From: Escherichia coli
GTDB lineage: Bacteria; Pseudomonadota; Gammaproteobacteria; Enterobacterales; Enterobacteriaceae
Assembly: GCF_003334815.1 (NCBI RefSeq)
Contig: NZ_QOWO01000003.1
DNA: 64,000 nucleotides
Direction: 5' to 3' (one strand)
The position numbers and the translations under genes were made by a program. A model generated the notes under the pieces. That model searched no databases. It was not told the origin of the DNA and saw only the letters and a list, made by a program, of their open reading frames with translations. Below are positions 18,838 to 31,289 of this stretch, piece after piece; the stretch's first letter is position 1; every line of letters begins with the position of its first letter.

Positions 18838-19335
18838 TGTGAATGCCTGATGCGACGCTTGCCGCGTCTTATCAGGCCTACGCCAGACAGCGCAATAGCC
18901 TGATTTAGCGTGATTTTGTAGGTCGGATAAGGCGTTTATGCCGCATCCGACATCAACGCCTGATGCGACGCTTAACGCGTCTTATCAGGCCTACGCCAGA
19001 CAGCGCAATAGCCTGATTTAGCGTGATTTTGTAGGTCGGATAAGGCGTTTACGCCGCATCCGACATCAACGCCTGATGCGACGCTTGCCGCGTCTTATCA
19101 GGCCTACGCCAGACAGCGCAATAGCCTGATTTAGCGTGATTTTGTAGGTCGGATAAGGCGTTTATGCCGCATCCGACATCAACGCCTGATGCGACGCTTA
19201 ACGCGTCTTATCAGGCCTACGCCAGACAGCGCAATAGCCTGATTTAGCGTGATTTTGTAGGTCGGATAAGGCGTTTACGCCGCATCCGACATCAATGCCT
19301 GATGCGACGCTTGCCGCGTCTTATCAGGCCTATCT
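18838..19335. repeat. Tandem array of about five 113-bp units, each containing paired REP palindromes
   Basis: GCCTGATGCGACGCTT(G/A)... recurs at about 18845, 18958, 19071, 19184 and 19297 (period 113 bp); units near-identical with a few substitutions. Confidence 0.85.
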
Positions 19336-20024
19336 TAACCGTTGGTTAATTTTTCAAACTCTTCACACCCGGTATCAAACCCTTCCATACAGCTCAGGTT
19401 CAACCAGTGCAGCGCCTTTTGCTTGTTCTTCTCGATAAAACCTTCTTCACCGTTTAAGAACATCATTCCCGCCCAGTACTCGGAATAACCGGTTCGGGAA
19501 ATTGCAGAGCTGCGTTTGAAATACCAGGTTGCCTTGTCATCGTCGGCCTTAATGCCCACGCCGTTGGCGTAAATCAAACCAAGCAGCATTTGGGCATCGA
19601 CGGCAGAGTCGTTCTCCAGATCTTCCGAGGCGTTTTCTAACAGCGAAATTGCCTTTGGATAATCCGGTTTACCCGCTTGAGTATTTACCAGAATATGCGC
19701 CAGCGTTACTTCACCTTCTTTACTGCCCGCTTGCGCCGCTTTCTCTGCAAGAACTTTTGCTTGTGGATAGTCCAGACTGACCGGATTGGTGATTTTGATC
19801 TGCGCCAGCAGCGCGCAGGCATCAGCATCACCGCTGTCGGCGGCTTTCTGTGCCCAATATTCGGCTTTGCTCAAATCGCCGGAGCTAAACCAGCTGTCGG
19901 CAAGAAAATATTGTGCGCGTCGGTCCCCGGCCTCTGCTGCCTTTAAATACTGGCTGCCAGGCTCGGAGTCGTTGGCGTGGGCAAAGAATGTCAAAAACAA
20001 CATCAATGCGATAATTTTTTTCAT
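19335..20024 (-). CDS. yjcO: Sel1-repeat protein with signal peptide, unknown function
   Basis: ORF track 229 aa MKKIIALMLFLTFFAHA...; repeated Sel1/TPR-like units. Confidence 0.85.
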   Translation of the reverse strand: MKKIIALMLFLTFFAHANDSEPGSQYLKAAEAGDRRAQYFLADSWFSSGDLSKAEYWAQKAADSGDADACALLAQIKITNPVSLDYPQAKVLAEKAAQAGSKEGEVTLAHILVNTQAGKPDYPKAISLLENASEDLENDSAVDAQMLLGLIYANGVGIKADDDKATWYFKRSSAISRTGYSEYWAGMMFLNGEEGFIEKNKQKALHWLNLSCMEGFDTGCEEFEKLTNG

Positions 20025-20076
20025 TTTGATAATACGATTGGGTAGGGAGTAACCAGTATAAAGAGTTCGAATGGAT

Positions 20077-20103
20077 AAAAAAACAGCCTCCGAAAGGAGG
20101 CTG
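20077..20103 (-). terminator. Rho-independent terminator of fdhF
   Basis: Hairpin CAGCCTCC-GAAA-GGAGGCTG with an A-run on the plus strand (T-run on the transcribed strand). Confidence 0.65.
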
Positions 20104-20117
20104 TAGAAAGGACGGTA

Positions 20118-22265
20118 TTACGCCAGTGCCGCTTCGCGCAGGCGAGTTTTCAACTTGTTGTACTCGTCAATCACGTACTGCTCGGCGGCGCGCTGATCGG
20201 CGATCGGCTCGACGCGAACGGCGCAGTATTTGTACTCCGGCGTTTTCGTAATCGGGCTTAAGTTTTCAGTAACCAGCTCGTTACAGGCACCAATCCACCA
20301 CTGGTAGGTCATGTAAATCGCCCCTTTGTTCGGACGATCGCTGACCTGCGCACGGGTGATAATTTTGCCTTTACGCGAGTGCACCCAAACCAATGCCTCA
20401 TCTTCAATACCCAGACGTTTGGCGTCTTCGGTATTGATTTGTGCGTAGCCAGGTTCATCAGCCAGCGCCGCCAGTGCCGCACAGTTACCGGTCATCGAAC
20501 GGCAAGAGTAGTGACCAACTTCACGCACCGTTGACAGTACCATCGGGTACTCGTCGGTGAGTTTGTCGATTGGCGCTACCCAGTCGCAGGTGAAGAACTG
20601 CGCCAGACCGTTCGGGGTATCAAACTTCTCTTTAAACAGATAAGAAGTCCCCTGATCGGCATCTGAAGTATCGCGGCAAGGCCACTGAATGAAGCCCAGT
20701 TCGCCCATTTTCTCGTAAGTCGCACCGTAGAAATCCGGGCACAGATGACGCAACTCATCCCAGATCTCCTGGGTGTTGTTGTAGTGCATCGGATAACCCA
20801 TACGGGTGGCGATTTCACTGATGATTTGCCAGTCCGTTTTCAGATCCCATTTCGGTTCAACCGCCTTGAAGAAACGCTGGAAGCCACGGTCAGCCGCAGT
20901 AAACACGCCTTCATGCTCGCCCCACGACGTTGACGGTAAAATAACATCCGCCGCCGACGCGGTTTTGGTCATAAAGATGTCCTGAACGATAACCAGTTCC
21001 AGATCTTCAAAGGCTTTACGTACTGCCGACAGCTCCGCGTCAGTTTGTAGCGGATCTTCGCCCATAATGTACGCGGCACGCACTTCGCCATGCGCTGCGC
21101 GGTGCGGCAGCTCGCTGATGCGATAGCCGGTATGCGCTGGCAGGCTTTCCACGCCCCAGGCTTTGGCGAATTTCTCGCGGTTAGCCGGATCTTTCACGTA
21201 CTGGTATCCCGGATACGTATCCGGCAGCGCGCCCATATCGCAGGCACCCTGAACGTTGTTCTGACCACGAACCGGGTTAACACCCGCATGCGGCTTACCG
21301 AGGTTACCGGTCAGCATCGCGAGGCTGGTCAGAGAACGCACGGTTTCCACGCCCTGGTAGAACTGGGTTACACCCATGCCCCACAGGATGGCGGCGCTTT
21401 TCGCCTGGGCATACATCCGTGCCGCCTGACGAATCTCACTGGCGCTGACGCCGGTGATATCTTCAACCGACTCCGGCGTGTAGCCTTCAACGATTTTACG
21501 ATACTCTTCAAAGCCTTCTGTACGTGAAGCGACGAACGCTTTGTCGTACAGATTTTCTTCAATAATGACATGGCCCATCGCATTCAACAGCGCGATGTTC
21601 GAGCCGTTTTTCAGTGCAATGTGCATGTCAGCAATGCGCGCGGTTTCAATTTTGCGCGGATCGCAGACGATAATTTTCGCCCCGTTACGTTTAGCGTTAA
21701 TTACGTGATTCGCCACGATTGGGTGGGAATCCGCCGGGTTGTACCCGAAAACGAACACTAAATCGGTATTATCAATTTCGTTAATAGCATTGCTCATTGC
21801 GCCATTACCGACCGATTGGTGCAGACCTGCAACCGATGGGCCGTGTCAGACACGAGCGCAGCAGTCAACGTTATTGGTACCAATAACGGCGCGCGCAAAT
21901 TTTTGCATTACATAGTTGGTTTCGTTACCCGTACCACGCGAGGAGCCGGTCGTCTGGATGGCATCCGGACCGTACTTCTCTTTGATGGCGCTCAGGCGCT
22001 CGGCAACGTAATTCAGTGCCTCATCCCAGGAAACAGGTTCGAGTTTGCCGCCACGCTGGCGACGGATCATGGGGGTTTTCAGGCGCGGGGTCAGGATCTG
22101 GGTATCGTTAATGAAGTCCCAGCCATAATAACCCTTCAGACACAGGGTACCCTGGTTGGTTTTCCCCTGCGCTGCCTCCGCCCGGACGATTTTGCCGTTA
22201 TCGACGACCAGGTTGATTTTGCAACCTGATGCGCAATAGGGGCAAACCGTGACGACTTTTTTCAT
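20118..22265 (-). CDS. fdhF: Formate dehydrogenase H (selenocysteine-containing molybdoenzyme of formate hydrogenlyase)
   Basis: Two in-frame ORF-track pieces (21846..22265 ending ...DCCARV, and 20118..21797) joined by a TGA at 21846..21848 read as selenocysteine; total 715 codons. Confidence 0.95.
21800..21848 (-). other. Selenocysteine UGA codon plus downstream SECIS stem-loop
   Basis: mRNA sequence UGA CAC GGC CCA UCG GUU GCA GGU CUG CAC CAA UCG GUC GGU AAU matches the fdhF SECIS as I remember it. Confidence 0.85.
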
Positions 22266-22304
22266 CGGTCTCGCTCCAGTTAATCAAATCACGCATACGC
22301 GCTC

Positions 22305-22333
22305 TCGACTACAGTATGCATCTTTTATGCCAC
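22305..22333 (-). promoter_or_regulatory. Sigma-54 (-24/-12) promoter of fdhF
   Basis: On the minus strand TGGCAT-AAAAG-ATGCA, with GG and GC separated by 10 nt, about 40 nt upstream of the start codon. Confidence 0.75.
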
Positions 22334-22394
22334 ATTTTATGTGGGGTCATTCCCTGATATTACGGGCACTATTTATTCAAAACTCTGACGAAAA

Positions 22395-22440
22395 ACAGGC
22401 TGTCGTCAGTTTTGACGTGACGAAACGAAATACCGCGTGA
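22395..22440 (-). promoter_or_regulatory. Candidate FhlA upstream activating sequence
   Basis: Inverted-repeat-rich TGTCGTCAGTTTTGACGTGACGAAACGAAA about 100 bp upstream of the sigma-54 promoter. Confidence 0.5.
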
Positions 22441-22462
22441 CAGCCATCACGCGGCAGACATT

Positions 22463-23929
22463 TTATTTTTTCTCGACGACGGGACCTGCCTGATACCCGC
22501 CGCCCAGCGATTTCATCAACTGAATGCTTTGGATCACCCGGCGGCTGTCCAGCATCAGTAATGACATCTCTTCGGCAAGCACTGGCAACCGGGCTTCGGT
22601 GGCCTGTAAGCGGCTGGTTAAGCCGCGCTGATAGGCGGCCTCGGCAGCGCGCTGGGTAAAGCGCGTGGCTTCCACGCGTTCAGCCTGCATTTCTCGCTCG
22701 TCGTTGAGCGTTTGCAGACGCGTGCCGTTGACGGCAACGTCACGCACCGCGTTCAGTACTGACTGGTTGTAACGTTCAATCATCATGTTGCTGGCGGCGC
22801 GCGTGCCTTCGAGATTGGCATTCAACCGTCCACCGTCAAACAGCGGCAATTTCAGACCCGGGATGAAGTTGAACTGGCGACTGGTTTTTTTGAATAAGGT
22901 ATGCAGATGGATGGAGTCCAGACCGAAAAACGCTTTGATATCAAAGCTCGGATAGAACAACGCCCGCGCGGAATCCACCTGATCTAATGACGCCTGAACA
23001 TACCAGCGCATGGCTTGCAGATCCGGGCGTCTGGCGAGCAACTCATAAGAGAGTGTCGCCGGAATGCCGGTCTGGACTTGCGGTAATGCCACCGGTCTGA
23101 TCTCCGGCATATCGCTGGCTCCCGCGCCAATCAATGCACGCAGAGATTCTCGCGTTTCGGTGATTTGCCCTTTGACGGCAACAATTTGTTTATCGACCGC
23201 CAGAATCTGTGCCCGCGCGCCGTGGAAAGGCACTTGCGCTTCCAGACCGTGCGCCACTTTACTCTGGTGCGCTTTCACCGCGTAATCAATCACATCGTGA
23301 GTTTGTTCTAACAGATCGAGCATCTGATAGCTGGCCTGCATACTGTAATAAAGCTGCGCTACGCCCGTGGCCAGCGATAGCTCTACTGCTGCGGTTTCTG
23401 CCAGCGCGGCATTATGCGCGCCAATGGCGGCGGCAACCGCTGAGCGATGCACACCCCACAAATCAAGATCCAGTCCGGCAAACAAACCTACTGTGGCTTC
23501 CGTATAGTACGGCCCGTCCATACCCAGTGCTGGCGCATCCATTGAATAAGGGCTTAAAAAGCCGTTCGCCGAGACACGTTGGCGGTTGAGCATCCCTAAC
23601 GCTGCGACCTGTAATTGTGAACCGGCATCTAACAAATCGGCCTGGGACTGCGCTTTTTCTTCCCGCAGTTTCGCTTCGGCGAGGGTGTGTGAACCACTTA
23701 GCGTCCGTTGGATCAGCGCATCCAGCTGCGGGTCATTGAGTTGTTTCCACCACTGCGCCTGCGGCCAGCCGGAGCTGGCAAGATGAATATCGTCGGCCAG
23801 TTTGATTTGTTCCGGTTTGAGCTGTTGATGAGGTGCAGAATCCTTACGTACCAGGGCACAGCCGGAAATCAGCGTCGTGCTGCCGAGAATGCTGCACAAC
23901 AGCAGACGTGAAAGTTGACGATTGATCAT
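22463..23929 (-). CDS. mdtP: Outer-membrane efflux channel (TolC-like) lipoprotein
   Basis: ORF track 488 aa; lipoprotein signal with LISGC lipobox. Confidence 0.9.
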   Translation of the reverse strand: MINRQLSRLLLCSILGSTTLISGCALVRKDSAPHQQLKPEQIKLADDIHLASSGWPQAQWWKQLNDPQLDALIQRTLSGSHTLAEAKLREEKAQSQADLLDAGSQLQVAALGMLNRQRVSANGFLSPYSMDAPALGMDGPYYTEATVGLFAGLDLDLWGVHRSAVAAAIGAHNAALAETAAVELSLATGVAQLYYSMQASYQMLDLLEQTHDVIDYAVKAHQSKVAHGLEAQVPFHGARAQILAVDKQIVAVKGQITETRESLRALIGAGASDMPEIRPVALPQVQTGIPATLSYELLARRPDLQAMRWYVQASLDQVDSARALFYPSFDIKAFFGLDSIHLHTLFKKTSRQFNFIPGLKLPLFDGGRLNANLEGTRAASNMMIERYNQSVLNAVRDVAVNGTRLQTLNDEREMQAERVEATRFTQRAAEAAYQRGLTSRLQATEARLPVLAEEMSLLMLDSRRVIQSIQLMKSLGGGYQAGPVVEKK

Positions 23930-25977
23930 TGCGTGGCTCCTTGTGCCTGTTCCGTGGCGGGCGTTAATGCCGGGGCTGTCCAGTCTGGCAAGCGGGCGAA
24001 AAGCTGGCAGACGTGTTGCTCCTGTTTTAATAAGGTGGGCAGGATGGCCTGAGAGGCGGGTGTCTCTTCAAGCGTTATTTGAGGAGAACGGCTGAGTGCG
24101 GTTGCCAGACCGGCAGCGTATTTCTCCAGGGCGTCGGCAAACTGACCTGCTCTGTCCGGCTGTAGTGCGTTATCCAGCGCCTGCGCCGAGTTCCAGGTGG
24201 CATCCCAGGCGTGAAGAAGATCGCGGCCCTGACGAATAACCGTTTGCGAACGTTCAATCAGTAATGCGCGTTCTTCGCTGTCCAGTTGACGCTCCAGCGC
24301 CACGCGTTGGCACATCTCTTCACAGGCATTAAACGCCGCATGCAGACCGATACGAATTTGCAGATAAGTGCGCAGAGCCGTGACTTCCTGCTGGCGTGGG
24401 ATCCGCATTACTTTACTTAACATACCCAGCGTGCCAGCCAGTTTTTGCGGCAGTGTGCGCGCTTCACTTTCAGGCCAGACAAAGGTGTAAATCACCGCGG
24501 ACACCACGGTACCAATGATGATACCCAGGGCGCGATCGCGAATTTCCACCAGGTCGTACACTGGGCCAAAAACGTTTTCGAGCGTGGCGAGCGCGAAGGT
24601 GACCACCATCTGTGTGCCGATATAAGAAGAGCGTTCAGAGCTGGTGGCAATCCATGCGCCCAACAGGAAAATCGGTGCCAGCACAAACAGCAATTCGACA
24701 ATATTGTCCAGCCAGGGCATGACCAGTAGCGTGAATAACAGCGCCAGAATCGCGCCGCAAAAGGCCCCGCCAAAACGCAGCACCATCTTCTGGTACGACG
24801 AACCGACATTTGGGTTAGCGACGATCACGCATGTCAGCATACAGGTGTGAATGCCTTCCCAGTCCACGCCGCTGTAAAAGGTGTAACAGATCAAACAGGC
24901 GAGCAGCGTTTTTACCGCGTAGCGCATATAGTCTGGATTGGTAAAAGCATCGGCGGCCATTGATGGCGGTTTGGCTGCGGGCGTTGGCGGCGTATTCGGG
25001 TCCATCTGACCCAGTTGTAACAACGTCTGGCAGATATTCTCCAGGTTACATTCCCGTGCCGCCATCGCTTCACTTTCACTGATCCGCCAGTCGCTTTGCC
25101 AGCACTGACCTTCAGCAACGGCATGCTGCAGCTTGTTGATTTCTGAAGCTAATTTTTGTCGGAATTCAATAATTGCCTGAGAATCAGCAAAAGAGGTGGG
25201 ATCGTAGCGATTCAGCGTCGAGTAAATGTAGGTTACCGTTGCCACGCAGCTTTGCCACCATGCGTTTTGAGTTCGCCAGTTGGCATCGTCCGCGAGGCAA
25301 AAGACATTGAGTTTTTGTAGCGCCAGCGCCTCTCTTTCAATCCGCGTTTCGGGTAGCGGTGCGAGGCTGTCTGTCAGGTGACTAATGGCATCATCAAGCC
25401 GATCATTAAGCGCCTGATGCATTTGCGAAATGGCACGACTGGGAAACCACAGCACGCCGATTAACGTCATCAGCAAGGTTGGATAGAGGCCAACAACGAT
25501 ACACCACAGCGTTAAGCGCACGACCACTTCCGGATAGTCGAGCATGGCGGGGAAGGTTTGCCCGTAAATAGCGACAATGGCGACGGCGAAAAAGACCAGC
25601 CCCAAGCGATGGGTGCGCATCAAAAACATGCAGCCCATCAGGATCGGTCCGGCGATGATCAATCGGATCAACGGTTCGCCGTATGACCATTTGTAGATCA
25701 AAAACAGGCTGCCGATCTCCAGCACCGTGGCAACCACAAACAAGATCGCGACAAATTTGGTGTAAAACGCGTTCGACTGAATACCGTAAAACAGCACTGC
25801 CAGCGATAACGCCACAAAAGGGATCTCAAAGGTCATCGAGATCAGAATCACCAGCAGGCAGCCTACCCAGAGTTGCACGGTCTGCGGCACGCGACCTGGT
25901 CGCCGCTCGCTTAACTCTTCATGAAAGAACGCCAGCAGCCTGACCACCGGTAATGGCAGGGAGTTGAGCGCGCTCAT
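23926..25977 (-). CDS. mdtO: Inner-membrane exporter of the FUSC/AaeB-like family
   Basis: ORF track 683 aa; overlaps mdtP and mdtN. Confidence 0.9.
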   Translation of the reverse strand: MSALNSLPLPVVRLLAFFHEELSERRPGRVPQTVQLWVGCLLVILISMTFEIPFVALSLAVLFYGIQSNAFYTKFVAILFVVATVLEIGSLFLIYKWSYGEPLIRLIIAGPILMGCMFLMRTHRLGLVFFAVAIVAIYGQTFPAMLDYPEVVVRLTLWCIVVGLYPTLLMTLIGVLWFPSRAISQMHQALNDRLDDAISHLTDSLAPLPETRIEREALALQKLNVFCLADDANWRTQNAWWQSCVATVTYIYSTLNRYDPTSFADSQAIIEFRQKLASEINKLQHAVAEGQCWQSDWRISESEAMAARECNLENICQTLLQLGQMDPNTPPTPAAKPPSMAADAFTNPDYMRYAVKTLLACLICYTFYSGVDWEGIHTCMLTCVIVANPNVGSSYQKMVLRFGGAFCGAILALLFTLLVMPWLDNIVELLFVLAPIFLLGAWIATSSERSSYIGTQMVVTFALATLENVFGPVYDLVEIRDRALGIIIGTVVSAVIYTFVWPESEARTLPQKLAGTLGMLSKVMRIPRQQEVTALRTYLQIRIGLHAAFNACEEMCQRVALERQLDSEERALLIERSQTVIRQGRDLLHAWDATWNSAQALDNALQPDRAGQFADALEKYAAGLATALSRSPQITLEETPASQAILPTLLKQEQHVCQLFARLPDWTAPALTPATEQAQGATQ

Positions 25978-27008
25978 TATTGCGGCTCAAGATTAGCGAC
26001 TGCCGAAGCGCCGATGCGGAACATTTCCGGGTCAGGTTTATCGACCATGATTTTGACCGGAAAACGCTGGGCAACGCGGACCCAGTTAATAGAACGAGAC
26101 ACTTTCGGCAGGCCGCCCAGCACCAGGCCGCCGTCATCCGGTAGCACGCCGTAGCCAATCGAATCCACTTTACCCTCGAAGGTTTTGCCGCTGTCACTCA
26201 TCAGGCGAATCGTTGCGGGTGTACCTGAGCGAATATTTTTCAGATCGGTTTCGCGGAAGTTGGCGATCACATACCAGTGACGAGTGTCGATTAGGGTAAA
26301 AATAGGGCGCATGGCAGAAGCAAATTGCCCGACGGAGGTTTTGAGGGAAATGACCCGGCCATCAAACGGCGCGCGAACGGTCGCCATTTCCAGATGCAGT
26401 TTGGTCAGGGCAATATCCGCTTCGACCGCCGCACGCTGGGCAACTAATGCATCCACGCCGCTGACGGCGCTGGCGGCTGACTGCGCCTGTAACAATACGG
26501 CATTAAGATCCGCTTCTGCGGCGCGCTGCGCCGTTCTTGCACGGTCAACATCTTCCGCTGAGACAAAACCTTCTTTCAGTAATGGCTCGGTGCGGCGTAA
26601 TGTATCTGTGGCCTGTTTCGCGGCGGCACGGGCTTTTTCTACCGTGGCATTAACCGAGTCGGCACCAAACTGTTGCGCGTCAACGCTACGCTGGGTGAGC
26701 ATAATTTGCTTATCCAGCGCCGCGAGGGAGGCTTCAGCTTTCGCCAGATTGGCTTCGTACGGGCGCGGGTCGATGCGGAACAGCAAATCGCCCTGTTTGA
26801 CTGCCTGGTTGTCGGTGACCGCCAGTTCTACAATGCGGCCGCTGACTTCCGGTACCACATCAATGGTATCTGCTGACGCGTAAGCGTCATTAGTTGATGG
26901 CGCACTGTCTACGCGCCAGATAACGAAAACAAGGGCAACCAGCGCCAACGCAACCACTAACAGAGCAGGGAATTTACTGCGAGGAGCTTTTTTCGGCGTA
27001 CTTTCCAT
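25977..27008 (-). CDS. mdtN: Membrane fusion (periplasmic adaptor) protein
   Basis: ORF track 343 aa; single N-terminal transmembrane helix plus coiled-coil. Confidence 0.9.
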   Translation of the reverse strand: MESTPKKAPRSKFPALLVVALALVALVFVIWRVDSAPSTNDAYASADTIDVVPEVSGRIVELAVTDNQAVKQGDLLFRIDPRPYEANLAKAEASLAALDKQIMLTQRSVDAQQFGADSVNATVEKARAAAKQATDTLRRTEPLLKEGFVSAEDVDRARTAQRAAEADLNAVLLQAQSAASAVSGVDALVAQRAAVEADIALTKLHLEMATVRAPFDGRVISLKTSVGQFASAMRPIFTLIDTRHWYVIANFRETDLKNIRSGTPATIRLMSDSGKTFEGKVDSIGYGVLPDDGGLVLGGLPKVSRSINWVRVAQRFPVKIMVDKPDPEMFRIGASAVANLEPQ

Positions 27009-27026
27009 GAGCGCGTCTCAAATAGA

Positions 27027-27302
27027 TTAGAAAAATGCCAGCCAGAACAGCATGGCGTAGAGAGCAAAAAGGGCGGTATAAATAATTCCGACAAATGCCA
27101 GATTGATATTTGCCCGCTGAATAACTCGCCTCGTGATGAGCGTCAAAATAAGGCTGGCAATGGCGCAGAAAAACCAGCTGGGATAATAAGCGCCGATCAC
27201 CGGGATTGCCGGAGATAATGAGCATCCCGAAACCATGAAGACGGGAATTATCCAGGCTGTTTTTTTGAGTTGCATCGCCATGCGAGAGAGAACTGTTGGC
27301 AT
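27027..27302 (-). CDS. ytcA: Small lipoprotein/membrane protein heading the mdtNOP operon
   Basis: ORF track 107 aa trimmed to MPTVLSRMAMQLKK... (91 aa); VSGC lipobox-like motif. Confidence 0.75.
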   Translation of the reverse strand: MPTVLSRMAMQLKKTAWIIPVFMVSGCSLSPAIPVIGAYYPSWFFCAIASLILTLITRRVIQRANINLAFVGIIYTALFALYAMLFWLAFF

Positions 27303-27510
27303 ATTAAATACATCCTGTCTGCTGCGAACAATATCTGTAGTGAATATCAATATCCATTGAAGGCGTCAGTATGGCTATTTTCTTGATGAATAAAAATAGC
27401 TTTATTCAGCCACCGCATTCATAACTTATATATTTTATTTATTAATTGGCTGTATATATTTTTAAAATAAATACTTTTGGGGGCTTCAGCGCCCACAAAA
27501 GCGAGTGACA

Positions 27511-29420
27511 TTAATTTGGGGTTACGATATTCACCCACAAATCGAAATTATCCAGACAGGCGATAATTTCTTCCAGTTTCGCGCCATTGCCAATAATTTT
27601 GGCTTTCTTCGCTTTTACCAGATCCGCCATTTTGGCTTGTCCGGTCAGCACGGCGTGCAGATCTTCACGGCTGATGTAGAAAGAGGCGTCGGCTTGCGGT
27701 TGCAGCGTTTTCCGGTAGTTAAGCACGCTATCGTTCAGCGTCAGGTTGAGGTTATCGCCGTTGCTCATATTGAAGTTCAGGCTGATATTTTTACCCGCAG
27801 CTTTCGCGCTATCGAGGCGAACGGCCATAAAGTCGAACAGCATTTCGACCGACATCCCGCGAATGGTGTCCGGGGAACCGGTGGTGCCGTGGCTGAACTT
27901 ATGCACCCCTTCGCGCAGCTCTTTCGCGCCGGTCAGGTAGAAACCGCGCCATGTGGCGGACTCGGCCTGATAGCCCAGCTGTTCAAAGTTATTCGCTTGC
28001 AGATTCTTCGCGACCTGGTCACCCGGGTTGGCGGCAATCACCTGTTTCAGCAGTTCTGCCGACCAGCGGTAATCACCTTGCTTGTTCGCTTCTTGCGCCA
28101 GGTTGATGACACGGGCAGAACCGCCCAGCGCCTGCACGTAACGTTTACCCATCTCCACCTGACCATACGGATGCAGGTTAGCCGGGTTACCGTCGTAATA
28201 GCCAAGATAGAAGTTATACACCGCGCGGGCGTTGTGGCTGACAGAACCGTAATAGCCGCGGCTGGCCCAGTTATTGGCAAGTGCAGGCGGCAGCTTAATC
28301 ATGTCGCCGATTTCATTCATGGTGTAGCCCTGGTTCGCCAGGTGTGCGGCATAAACAGCACTTCCGCGTCGTTACCCCACATATCCAGCGTTTCGTTCAG
28401 ATACTCGGTCCACTTGCTGGTGTCGCGGGTTTTCGCGCCGCGCAGAGTGTAGAAGTTGTGCAGGGTATGCGTGGCGTTCTCGGCGGTACACAGGGCTTTC
28501 AGGGCCGGAATATAGAAGTGCATTTCGGCTGGCGCTTCGCTACCTGGGGTCATCAGGAAGTCAAACTCCAGGCCGTCGATAATCATCTTCTCGCCAGTTC
28601 TGACGATAGTTTTCGTCGGTGCAATAATGCTCGGGTCGCCCGTTGCCAGCGTCACGCCAAGGCCATTACCCACATTGCCTTGCGCGTTGTGCGGCAGTAA
28701 CAGACCGTAAGAGTAGAGCGCACGGCGGCTCATGATGTTACCCGCCAGCACGTTTTCGCTGATGGCTTCGTCCATAAAGCCTGCAGGGGCAATCACCTGA
28801 ACTTTGCCGGATTTAACATCGGCTTCAGAGATAATGCCTTTCACGCCACCATAGTGGTCGGTGTGGCTGTGAGTGTAGATAACGGCAACAATCGGTTTTT
28901 GCGGACGATGCTGGAAGTAAAGGTCAAGTGCGGCTTTTGCGGCAGGCGGCGTCACCAGCGGGTCGATAACAATAATGCCTTTCTCGCCCTCAACGAACGT
29001 AATGTTAGAGATATCCTGGCCGCGCACCTGATACATTTTATCGGTGACTTTGAACAGGCCAGAAATACCGTTGATTTGCGACTGACGCCACAGGCTGGGG
29101 TTTACGGTTTCCGGCGCTGCGGCATTAATATCAAATTTGTAATCGTCCGCGCGGTAGTAAACTTTACCGTTCGCATCACGCAGAATACCTTCATCCAGCA
29201 GCGGGGCGATAAATCCACGCTGGGCATCGTCAAAATCCTGACGATCGCTAAACGGTAATGATTTGGCGTAATTCTGATTAACCTGTTGGGTATATTGAGT
29301 GGCGGCTTTCGCTTCCTCTTTCGCGTTAGCGGTATTTACCATCATGCCGCTGGCGGCAGTTAACGCAATAACAATCCTGCTCAAACGGAATAACCGAGAG
29401 TTATTCATATAAATCTCCAT
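27511..29420 (-). pseudogene. yjcS: SdsA1-like alkyl sulfatase (MBL fold plus SCP2 domain), disrupted by a frame shift
   Basis: ORF track splits it into 28317..29420 (367 aa, ends ...[16 protein letters not shown]) and 27511..28320 (continues ...[12 protein letters not shown]... in another frame); junction near 28335..28340. Confidence 0.7.
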
Positions 29421-29680
29421 TTATCATTTATGTCGTAAATATGTAATCCATGCAAAATACGTCATTTAAAGCTGGCGTTATCATAATTGGGAAATTGCGA
29501 CTTTAATAAGTGGAAGTGTGAGCGGAACGCGCCATTTTATTAGGCATTTGTGCTGAAGAGGGAAAATTACAGTAAAACTATCATTGCAGAAAATAATATG
29601 AGTCGTTTTATGTGTTTATTATATATATTGTACCTGTCGTTGGCACAGCGGGACATTGCGCTACTGTGCCAACGTTTTAC

Positions 29681-31289
<1,609 letters not shown>

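Follow-up and report, generated by a model that had tools for sequence, protein, structure and literature searches.

The ytcA–mdtNOP operon of Escherichia coli as a probable four-component exporter of the FUSC type

The ytcA–mdtNOP operon of Escherichia coli, the subject of the work presented here, probably codes for a four-component exporter that spans the cell envelope and is of the FUSC type (fusaric-acid resistance/aromatic-acid exporter). The operon occupies positions 22463–27302 on the minus strand of a 64,000-nucleotide stretch of E. coli DNA (contig NZ_QOWO01000003.1), which we refer to as the window and whose numbering is used throughout. An original prediction, made from the letters of the window, had assigned mdtP, mdtO, mdtN, and ytcA to precisely this interval, and both the gene content and the boundaries, from the mdtP stop to the ytcA start, are exact and agree with RefSeq. 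The same prediction saw in these genes an architecture of the AaeXAB type joined to a dedicated outer-membrane channel, a proposal that is supported by the gene order, by the profile alignment of MdtO and AaeB, and, more weakly, by the alignment of YtcA with AaeX. The gene set agrees with the RefSeq annotation of MG1655, and all four open reading frames (ORFs) are intact and arranged head to tail. The features considered are as follows.

ytcA, 27027–27302, minus strand: 91 residues; predicted small inner-membrane lipoprotein with a signal peptide and a two-helix hairpin probably related to AaeX/DUF1656.
mdtN, 25977–27008, minus strand: 343 residues; predicted periplasmic adaptor of the EmrA/AaeA type with one N-terminal transmembrane (TM) anchor.
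mdtO, 23926–25977, minus strand: 683 residues; inner-membrane FUSC-family transporter, modeled as 2 × (6 TM helices + cytoplasmic helical domain).
mdtP, 22463–23929, minus strand: 488 residues; predicted outer-membrane channel lipoprotein of the NodT family.
Terminator-like hairpin with a T-rich tail, 22431–22456, minus strand: 7 nucleotides past the mdtP stop, from a consensus scan.
Presumed promoter/regulatory region of ytcA–mdtNOP, 27303–27510, minus strand: AT-rich, between yjcS and ytcA; role inferred.

The four genes are real and not chance ORFs; the products of mdtO, mdtN, and mdtP match their own NCBIfam equivalog models with 1370.5, 535.1, and 1023.7 bits, respectively, scores that far exceed the curated cut-offs.

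MdtO is an inner-membrane protein of the FUSC/ALMT superfamily and belongs to neither the major facilitator superfamily (MFS) nor the resistance-nodulation-division (RND) superfamily. The domain searches that the original prediction had named as a check, with placement of MdtO outside the FUSC/AaeB family as the contrary outcome, keep the protein inside FUSC. Pfam FUSC (PF04632) is matched with an E value of 1.3e-17 over residues 170–537 and FUSC_2 (PF13515) with an E value of 1e-7; the sole further Pfam match up to an E value of 10 is ALMT (E 0.75), and no MFS or RND family is found over the same range. Run exhaustively against 1.84 billion cluster representatives, phmmer returned 1648 relatives of MdtO at E ≤1e-3 and 426 at E ≤1e-30. 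The family alignment used below comprises 32 diverse full-length members sharing 24–67% identity; every one of the 32 matches both FUSC and FUSC_2, and nine also match ALMT.

The fold of MdtO leads to the same superfamily. As a single sequence, MdtO matches nothing in the PDB even at E values up to 10, and the best match of the family profile is the soybean channel GmALMT12/QUAC1 (E 2.6e-4). In that profile alignment, the family-invariant residues Arg401 and Asp481-Arg482 fall on motifs common to ALMT12; the invariant arginines located in membrane helices are Arg105, Arg121, Arg401, and Arg482. An AlphaFold2 model of MdtO built on the family alignment is confident (predicted local distance difference test, 85.8; predicted template modeling score, 0.83) and places six membrane helices at residues ≈29–177 followed by a helical soluble domain at 182–324 in the N-terminal half, and six membrane helices at 348–499 followed by a helical domain at 505–661 in the C-terminal half. 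The model has two helical cytoplasmic domains and no periplasmic domains, and the hydropathy of the sequence is consistent with two repeats. Foldseek relates this model to AtALMT1, ALMT12, and ALMT9 with probabilities of 0.98–1.0, while MFS structures stay below 0.2 and EmrB (8zal_J) reaches 0.05; ALMT channels, which are the only solved structures of the FUSC clan, are also the only solved structures that match the predicted fold. The N- and C-terminal halves of MdtO align with one another in register over 256 columns (hhalign with the family alignment, E 6.5e-5, probability 64%). Because the halves align and the model contains 6 + 6 TM helices with two helical domains, MdtO looks like a fused pseudo-dimer in which two units resembling ALMT protomers are joined in one chain. 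This duplicated architecture is that expected for the FUSC/aromatic-acid-exporter family.

E. coli K-12 encodes three modules composed of a small protein, an adaptor, and a FUSC protein, namely aaeXAB, ydhIJK, and ytcA–mdtNOP; for comparison, aaeXAB (L002, 1222–4338) and ydhIJK (L011, 2526–5634) were taken from MG1655. AaeAB and YdhJK are mutually close, with AaeA and YdhJ sharing 41% identity and AaeB and YdhK matching with an E value of 8e-23, and MdtO is the outlier among the three FUSC paralogues (pairwise E 2e-3 against YdhK). The description of MdtO as a FUSC/AaeB-like inner-membrane protein is borne out by the FUSC match and by the comparison of family profiles, in which MdtO and AaeB align with a probability of 96% (hhalign, E 4.3e-9); yet MdtO is no AaeB orthologue. 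Pairwise, the two proteins share 24% identity over only 157 residues (E 1e-4), and MdtO fails to match the AaeB equivalog NF007916 (cut-off 870 bits) even at E values up to 10, a model on which AaeB scores 1219 bits and YdhK 120 bits. These comparisons argue that MdtO represents a deep separate branch. Searches for homologues of AaeB and of AaeX yielded only close enterobacterial sequences; the profiles of both are shallow, and the hhalign probabilities obtained with them are therefore conservative.

The adaptor MdtN has a single hydrophobic segment, located at the N terminus (residues 8–38), and contains the Pfam domains HlyD_D23 and HlyD_3. It had been called AaeA-like, which holds insofar as MdtN and AaeA share 29% identity over their full length (BLASTP, E 2e-35), with ≈57 extra residues in the hairpin region of MdtN; MdtN is, however, EmrA-like to the same degree. 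Its score of 419.7 bits passes the cut-off of the EmrA/EmrK subfamily TIGR00998 (390.8 bits), the AaeA and EmrA equivalogs return 143.7 and 129.2 bits, both below their own cut-offs, and among solved structures E. coli EmrA, in the EmrAB–TolC complex, comes closest to it (8zar, E 2e-29). MdtN also matches YdhJ (32% identity, E 2e-46 by BLASTP). "EmrA/AaeA-type" is thus the more accurate label. MdtP, anticipated as a TolC-like lipoprotein, conforms to that description; it passes the cut-off of the outer_NodT subfamily TIGR01845 (272.8 versus 210 bits), carries the lipobox ISGC with the predicted lipidated residue at Cys24, and finds its solved relatives in VceC (1yc9, E 2e-42), CusC, SilC, and OprJ/OprM. 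By these matches, MdtP is an outer-membrane lipoprotein channel of the NodT type.

The first gene of the operon was expected to encode a small lipoprotein of about 90 residues, and YtcA, with 91 residues and the lipobox VSGC (Cys27) in its signal peptide, fits; a two-helix hairpin follows. YtcA belongs to a Pfam family of its own (Ytca, PF17090; E 1.7e-15) and matches DUF1656, the AaeX family, weakly (E 0.0016). In a BLASTP comparison, AaeX pairs over almost its entire length with the mature portion of YtcA (63 residues, 38% identity, E 8e-6). In NCBIfam, YtcA matches nothing at the default threshold, and only the AaeX equivalog up to an E value of 10 (E 0.03, positions 4–63 of the 67 in the model, 14.6 bits versus a cut-off of 82). 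The two family profiles align with an E value of 1.2e-4 and a probability of only 55% (hhalign), and a multiple alignment of YtcA and AaeX sequences reveals a common core motif, G-x-[YF]-[YF]-P, that opens the first helix. The lipobox Cys is kept in 13 of the 14 aligned YtcA homologues. On a contig from an uncultured Thiohalocapsa (L008, 3535–3753), we also find a Ytca-family protein of 72 residues that has neither signal peptide nor lipobox and starts directly at the conserved hairpin, as does AaeX; in form, this protein falls naturally between YtcA and AaeX. We read YtcA as a putatively lipid-anchored version of the AaeX hairpin, with which its homology is probable.

To place the operon in a broader context, we examined the contigs that encode seven distant MdtO relatives (28–42% identity). 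All seven loci have the same order, with a Ytca-family gene first, followed by an adaptor gene, the FUSC gene, and a fourth gene. The adaptor carries the Pfam Beta-barrel_AAEA domain in each of the seven, and the fourth gene encodes an OEP-family outer-membrane factor in six; in the remaining locus (L010), it runs off the contig end and has no Pfam assignment. Named sources include Kluyvera, Paraburkholderia, Burkholderiales, Acinetobacter faecalis, Rudaea, Thiohalocapsa, a deltaproteobacterium, and Puniceicoccales (Verrucomicrobiota), and the NCBI names of the distant MdtO relatives are "FUSC family protein" or "MdtO." Because the cassette is conserved in such distant loci, ytcA belongs to the MdtNOP system, and a dedicated outer-membrane factor is a stable feature of the MdtO branch.

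Within E. coli, the DNA between positions 22300 and 27600 is 100% identical to that of MG1655, C600, J53, and other strains, including a perfect match over this interval in strain 52F4; the chromosome from which the window comes is K-12-like. Of 5426 complete E. coli genomes, 5391 contain 80% or more of this interval, nearly all of them with at least 95% identity. The statement that all genes overlap holds for two of the three junctions, mdtO/mdtP (4 nucleotides, ATGA) and mdtN/mdtO (1 nucleotide, TAATG), which have the form of translational-coupling overlaps; it does not hold for ytcA and mdtN, where an 18-nucleotide spacer separates the stop from the start. The hairpin past mdtP consists of an 11-pair stem with six G-C pairs followed by TTTCGTTTCG, a pattern match that probably marks the end of the operon as a putative terminator. 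Upstream of ytcA lies a 208-nucleotide intergenic region with a G+C content of 32.7%, in which a promoter scan finds no match to the sigma-70 consensus on the minus strand; an Rfam scan of 22000–28000 finds no family. According to a recent review, the ytcA–mdtNOP promoter lacks experimental confirmation (PMC11762307). The neighbors of the locus are yjcS upstream, on the same strand, and fdhF downstream, with no adjacent regulator gene.

From these components, a working model can be proposed. MdtN would form a hexameric tube, as does EmrA in EmrAB–TolC, that stands on a single MdtO pseudo-dimer in the inner membrane and reaches a trimeric MdtP; this tube, together with the pump's own MdtP, would make it independent of TolC. 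YtcA would reside beside MdtO in the inner membrane as an accessory subunit. The substrates would be aromatic weak acids of the phenolic or carboxylic kind in their deprotonated form, which the pump would pick up in the cytoplasm or the inner leaflet and expel at the expense of the proton-motive force. The driver of MdtO may be either proton antiport or the membrane potential acting on the anion, the latter suggested by the resemblance of the fold to ALMT and by the arginines conserved within the membrane. The operon would be poorly expressed in laboratory K-12.

That the natural substrate is not established, as the original prediction had it, is a fair statement, although published genetics already point to phenolic and pyrrole weak acids (PMC8672772). 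In tolC-deleted E. coli, an 8855-bp deletion that spans alsR to mdtN inclusive is reported to bring mdtOP under control of the als promoter and to raise the minimal inhibitory concentrations (MICs) of pyrrolomycin-type antibiotics and armeniaspirol from 4–8 to >64 μg/ml; when mdtOP is also deleted, the MIC returns to 4–8 μg/ml (PMC8672772). Both groups of compounds are phenolic chlorinated-pyrrole protonophores (PMC8672772). The characterized FUSC pumps are narrow and handle aromatic acids; together with the mdtOP phenotype just described and with the relationship to anion channels and the invariant arginines, this leads us to favor the view that aromatic weak acids are exported as anions, independently of TolC. 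A bolder possibility, which we consider doubtful at present and advance tentatively, is that MdtO-type systems form a distinct and widespread subfamily of four-component FUSC exporters in which YtcA is obligatory and organic anions move electrophoretically. The fused ALMT-like engine would then be channel-like and driven by the membrane potential instead of by proton antiport, and in nature it would act on weak-acid protonophores, phenolic or halogenated, produced by competing microbes. An electrophoretic MdtO, if true, would represent a tripartite-efflux mechanism unlike those based on ATP-binding cassette (ABC), RND, or MFS engines.

Several points weigh against the proposal of a four-component exporter of aromatic weak acids. 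By sequence comparison, MdtO is so distant from AaeB and YdhK that homology cannot transfer the substrate class, and the kinship of YtcA with AaeX is based on weak statistics (hhalign probability of 55%, Pfam E 0.0016, NCBIfam E 0.03). The only phenotypes cited for null mutants concern puromycin, acriflavine, and tetraphenylarsonium, compounds that are not aromatic acids and some of which are cations (PMC11762307). In addition, the deletion that confers resistance takes out ytcA and mdtN (PMC8672772), so that in that setting mdtOP can do without its own adaptor and small protein or have them replaced; possible reasons that mdtOP works there are that another adaptor substitutes or that a residual gene fragment remains. 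Both the energy coupling and the stoichiometry given above for MdtNOP are what we infer, and full-text searches found nothing on MdtNOP in connection with fusaric-acid resistance or induction.

One alternative is that the hardware is of the FUSC type and serves physiologically to export a broad range of cationic or amphiphilic drugs, as a multidrug pump, and not as a relief valve for aromatic acids. MdtO branches deeply, at a distance from AaeB, and may thus differ in specificity; on the other hand, the characterized FUSC pumps (FuaABC and Bucl8-FusCDE) are narrow, the strongest gain-of-function phenotype of mdtOP concerns phenolic weak-acid protonophores (PMC8672772), and mdtP phenotypes could stem from MdtP pairing with other pumps. 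We regard such a role as unlikely. It is considerably more improbable, in our estimation, that E. coli carries the operon as a silent remnant that is decaying and no longer has a function. Such a view could appeal to the phenotypes being observed only after promoter capture by deletion (PMC8672772) and to an AT-rich upstream region with no consensus promoter and a promoter that is unconfirmed (PMC11762307), but it sits poorly with four intact ORFs, a locus found in 5391 of 5426 complete genomes, coupling overlaps kept at two junctions, and a cassette that is conserved across phyla.

The published pump class of MdtO is inconsistent, with two reviews giving MFS and one paper giving RND with homology to AcrB. 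The first of these would make MdtNOP an MFS-type tripartite multidrug pump like EmrAB–TolC; a 2021 table in Chemical Reviews lists MdtNOP, and AaeAB as well, under MFS (PMC8277102), a 2025 review of TolC names MdtO an MFS pump (PMC11762307), and the adaptor is compatible with this class, given that MdtN passes the EmrA/EmrK cut-off and has EmrA as its best solved relative. MdtO itself, however, has no MFS match in Pfam up to an E value of 10, and 32 of 32 relatives are FUSC proteins; Foldseek gives MFS structures less than 0.2, and EmrB 0.05, compared with 1.0 for ALMT, and the model contains two large helical domains on the cytoplasmic side, which MFS proteins do not have. On this domain and fold evidence we reject the MFS class, and an MFS-type MdtNOP seems extremely improbable. 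The second would make MdtO an RND transporter homologous to AcrB and MdtP a substitute for TolC in RND pumps; mdtO is indeed described as an RND component and acrB homologue (PMC8672772), and MdtP does belong to the outer-membrane factor family that RND pumps use. RND was likewise rejected as a class for MdtO, which has no Pfam match of the ACR_tran type and whose model lacks large periplasmic domains, and we give this alternative virtually no credence. None of the published MFS or RND labels, then, matches the domain and fold evidence on MdtO.

The FUSC classification of MdtO is itself already known, being present in Pfam and in NCBI protein names. The transporter classification database likewise places MdtO with the aromatic acid exporters. 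A full-text search of the open-access literature found no paper that links MdtO to AaeB or to the fusaric-acid pumps. The value added here lies in correcting the reviews that name MdtO an MFS or RND protein, which is a useful corrective and no discovery; modestly new are the probable homology of YtcA and AaeX and the finding that the four-gene cassette is strictly kept from phylum to phylum. The correction matters since surveys of resistance genes routinely list mdtN, mdtO, and mdtP, and under an MFS or RND label both structure and energy coupling are mispredicted, and the substrates probably are as well. To regard MdtNOP as a FUSC pump instead directs experiments to aromatic and phenolic weak acids and to protonophores, and an outer-membrane channel of its own explains how tolC-deleted E. 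coli can regain efflux via the mdtNOP locus. PDB searches from the MdtO sequence and profile identify no solved structure of a FUSC-family tripartite pump, and E. coli MdtNOP would be a convenient target for the first.

Besides a deletion in yjcS, only two single-base differences are present across 19300–30511 relative to MG1655 (NZ_CP032667.1), one at 20268 in fdhF (A in the window, G in NZ_CP032667.1) and the other at 27495 in the yjcS–ytcA intergenic region (A in the window, C in NZ_CP032667.1). The yjcS gene, which encodes an alkyl sulfatase on the minus strand (≈27511–29408), is missing 88 bp compared with MG1655 at the junction 28336|28337, a loss that splits it into ORFs at 28317–29420 and 27511–28320. 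The MG1655 segment missing from the window is flanked by an 8-bp direct repeat, GCCAGGTG, and because this repeat bounds the segment, the loss looks like a slippage or microhomology deletion. In the best eight E. coli records listed, the match comes in two pieces spanning 288 bp, and the 88 bp are thus retained there. In fdhF (minus strand, 20118–22265), an in-frame TGA is found at 21846–21848 (CARV-TGA-HGPSVAG), beyond which the frame continues; formate dehydrogenase H is expected to have a selenocysteine codon here, and the in-frame TGA is the reason that fdhF appears in two pieces in the ORF list.

Among known systems, ytcA–mdtNOP shares with aaeXAB the order of a small two-helix membrane protein, a membrane-anchored adaptor, and a FUSC protein, all on one strand. 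The aaeXAB operon lacks an outer-membrane factor gene, whereas MdtP is encoded in the mdtNOP operon, and it has a divergent LysR regulator gene, aaeR, whereas ytcA–mdtNOP has no adjacent regulator; unlike YtcA, AaeX has neither signal peptide nor lipobox, and AaeA lacks the additional hairpin residues of MdtN. YdhIJK, a DUF1656–adaptor–FUSC module, has a core of three genes like that of ytcA–mdtNO but no outer-membrane factor gene, and YdhK groups with AaeB whereas MdtO is remote; YtcA and YdhI give no BLASTP match. The likeness to EmrAB–TolC lies in the adaptor, for which the hexameric EmrA tube (six chains per entry) is the best template for a bridge from MdtN to MdtP; EmrAB–TolC combines an MFS engine with TolC, whereas MdtO is not an MFS protein and MdtNOP has its own outer-membrane factor. 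In the plant ALMT/QUAC channels, one protomer of six TM helices and a cytoplasmic helical domain matches half of MdtO, and the Arg and Asp-Arg motifs are held in common. These channels are, however, eukaryotic, homodimeric, and passive, with no adaptor or outer-membrane partner, whereas MdtO fuses two such units.

The closest functional analogues of MdtNOP are two pumps outside E. coli, the relatedness of MdtO to the first of these being by description and not by sequence. In FuaABC of Stenotrophomonas maltophilia, a single operon encodes a FUSC protein along with an adaptor and an outer-membrane protein dedicated to the pump. Each of the three parts is needed, and the system is specific for fusaric acid, is sensitive to carbonyl cyanide m-chlorophenylhydrazone, and exports none of six antibiotics tested (PMC3517613). 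It differs from ytcA–mdtNOP in that the FUSC gene comes first, no small protein is described, and control is exerted by FuaR, an AraC-type regulator encoded next to it. The "tetrapartite" Bucl8-FusCDE pump of Burkholderia pseudomallei/mallei likewise has four parts, an outer-membrane lipoprotein, the FUSC protein FusC, the small protein FusD (67 residues, of unknown function), and the adaptor FusE. Fusaric acid and p-hydroxybenzoate induce this pump, which confers no resistance to clinical antimicrobials (PMC7682875). Its genes are ordered outer-membrane factor, FusC, FusD, FusE, its outer-membrane factor bears a collagen-like extension, and a divergent regulator, fusR, is present; FusD is not reported to be a lipoprotein, whereas YtcA carries a lipobox.

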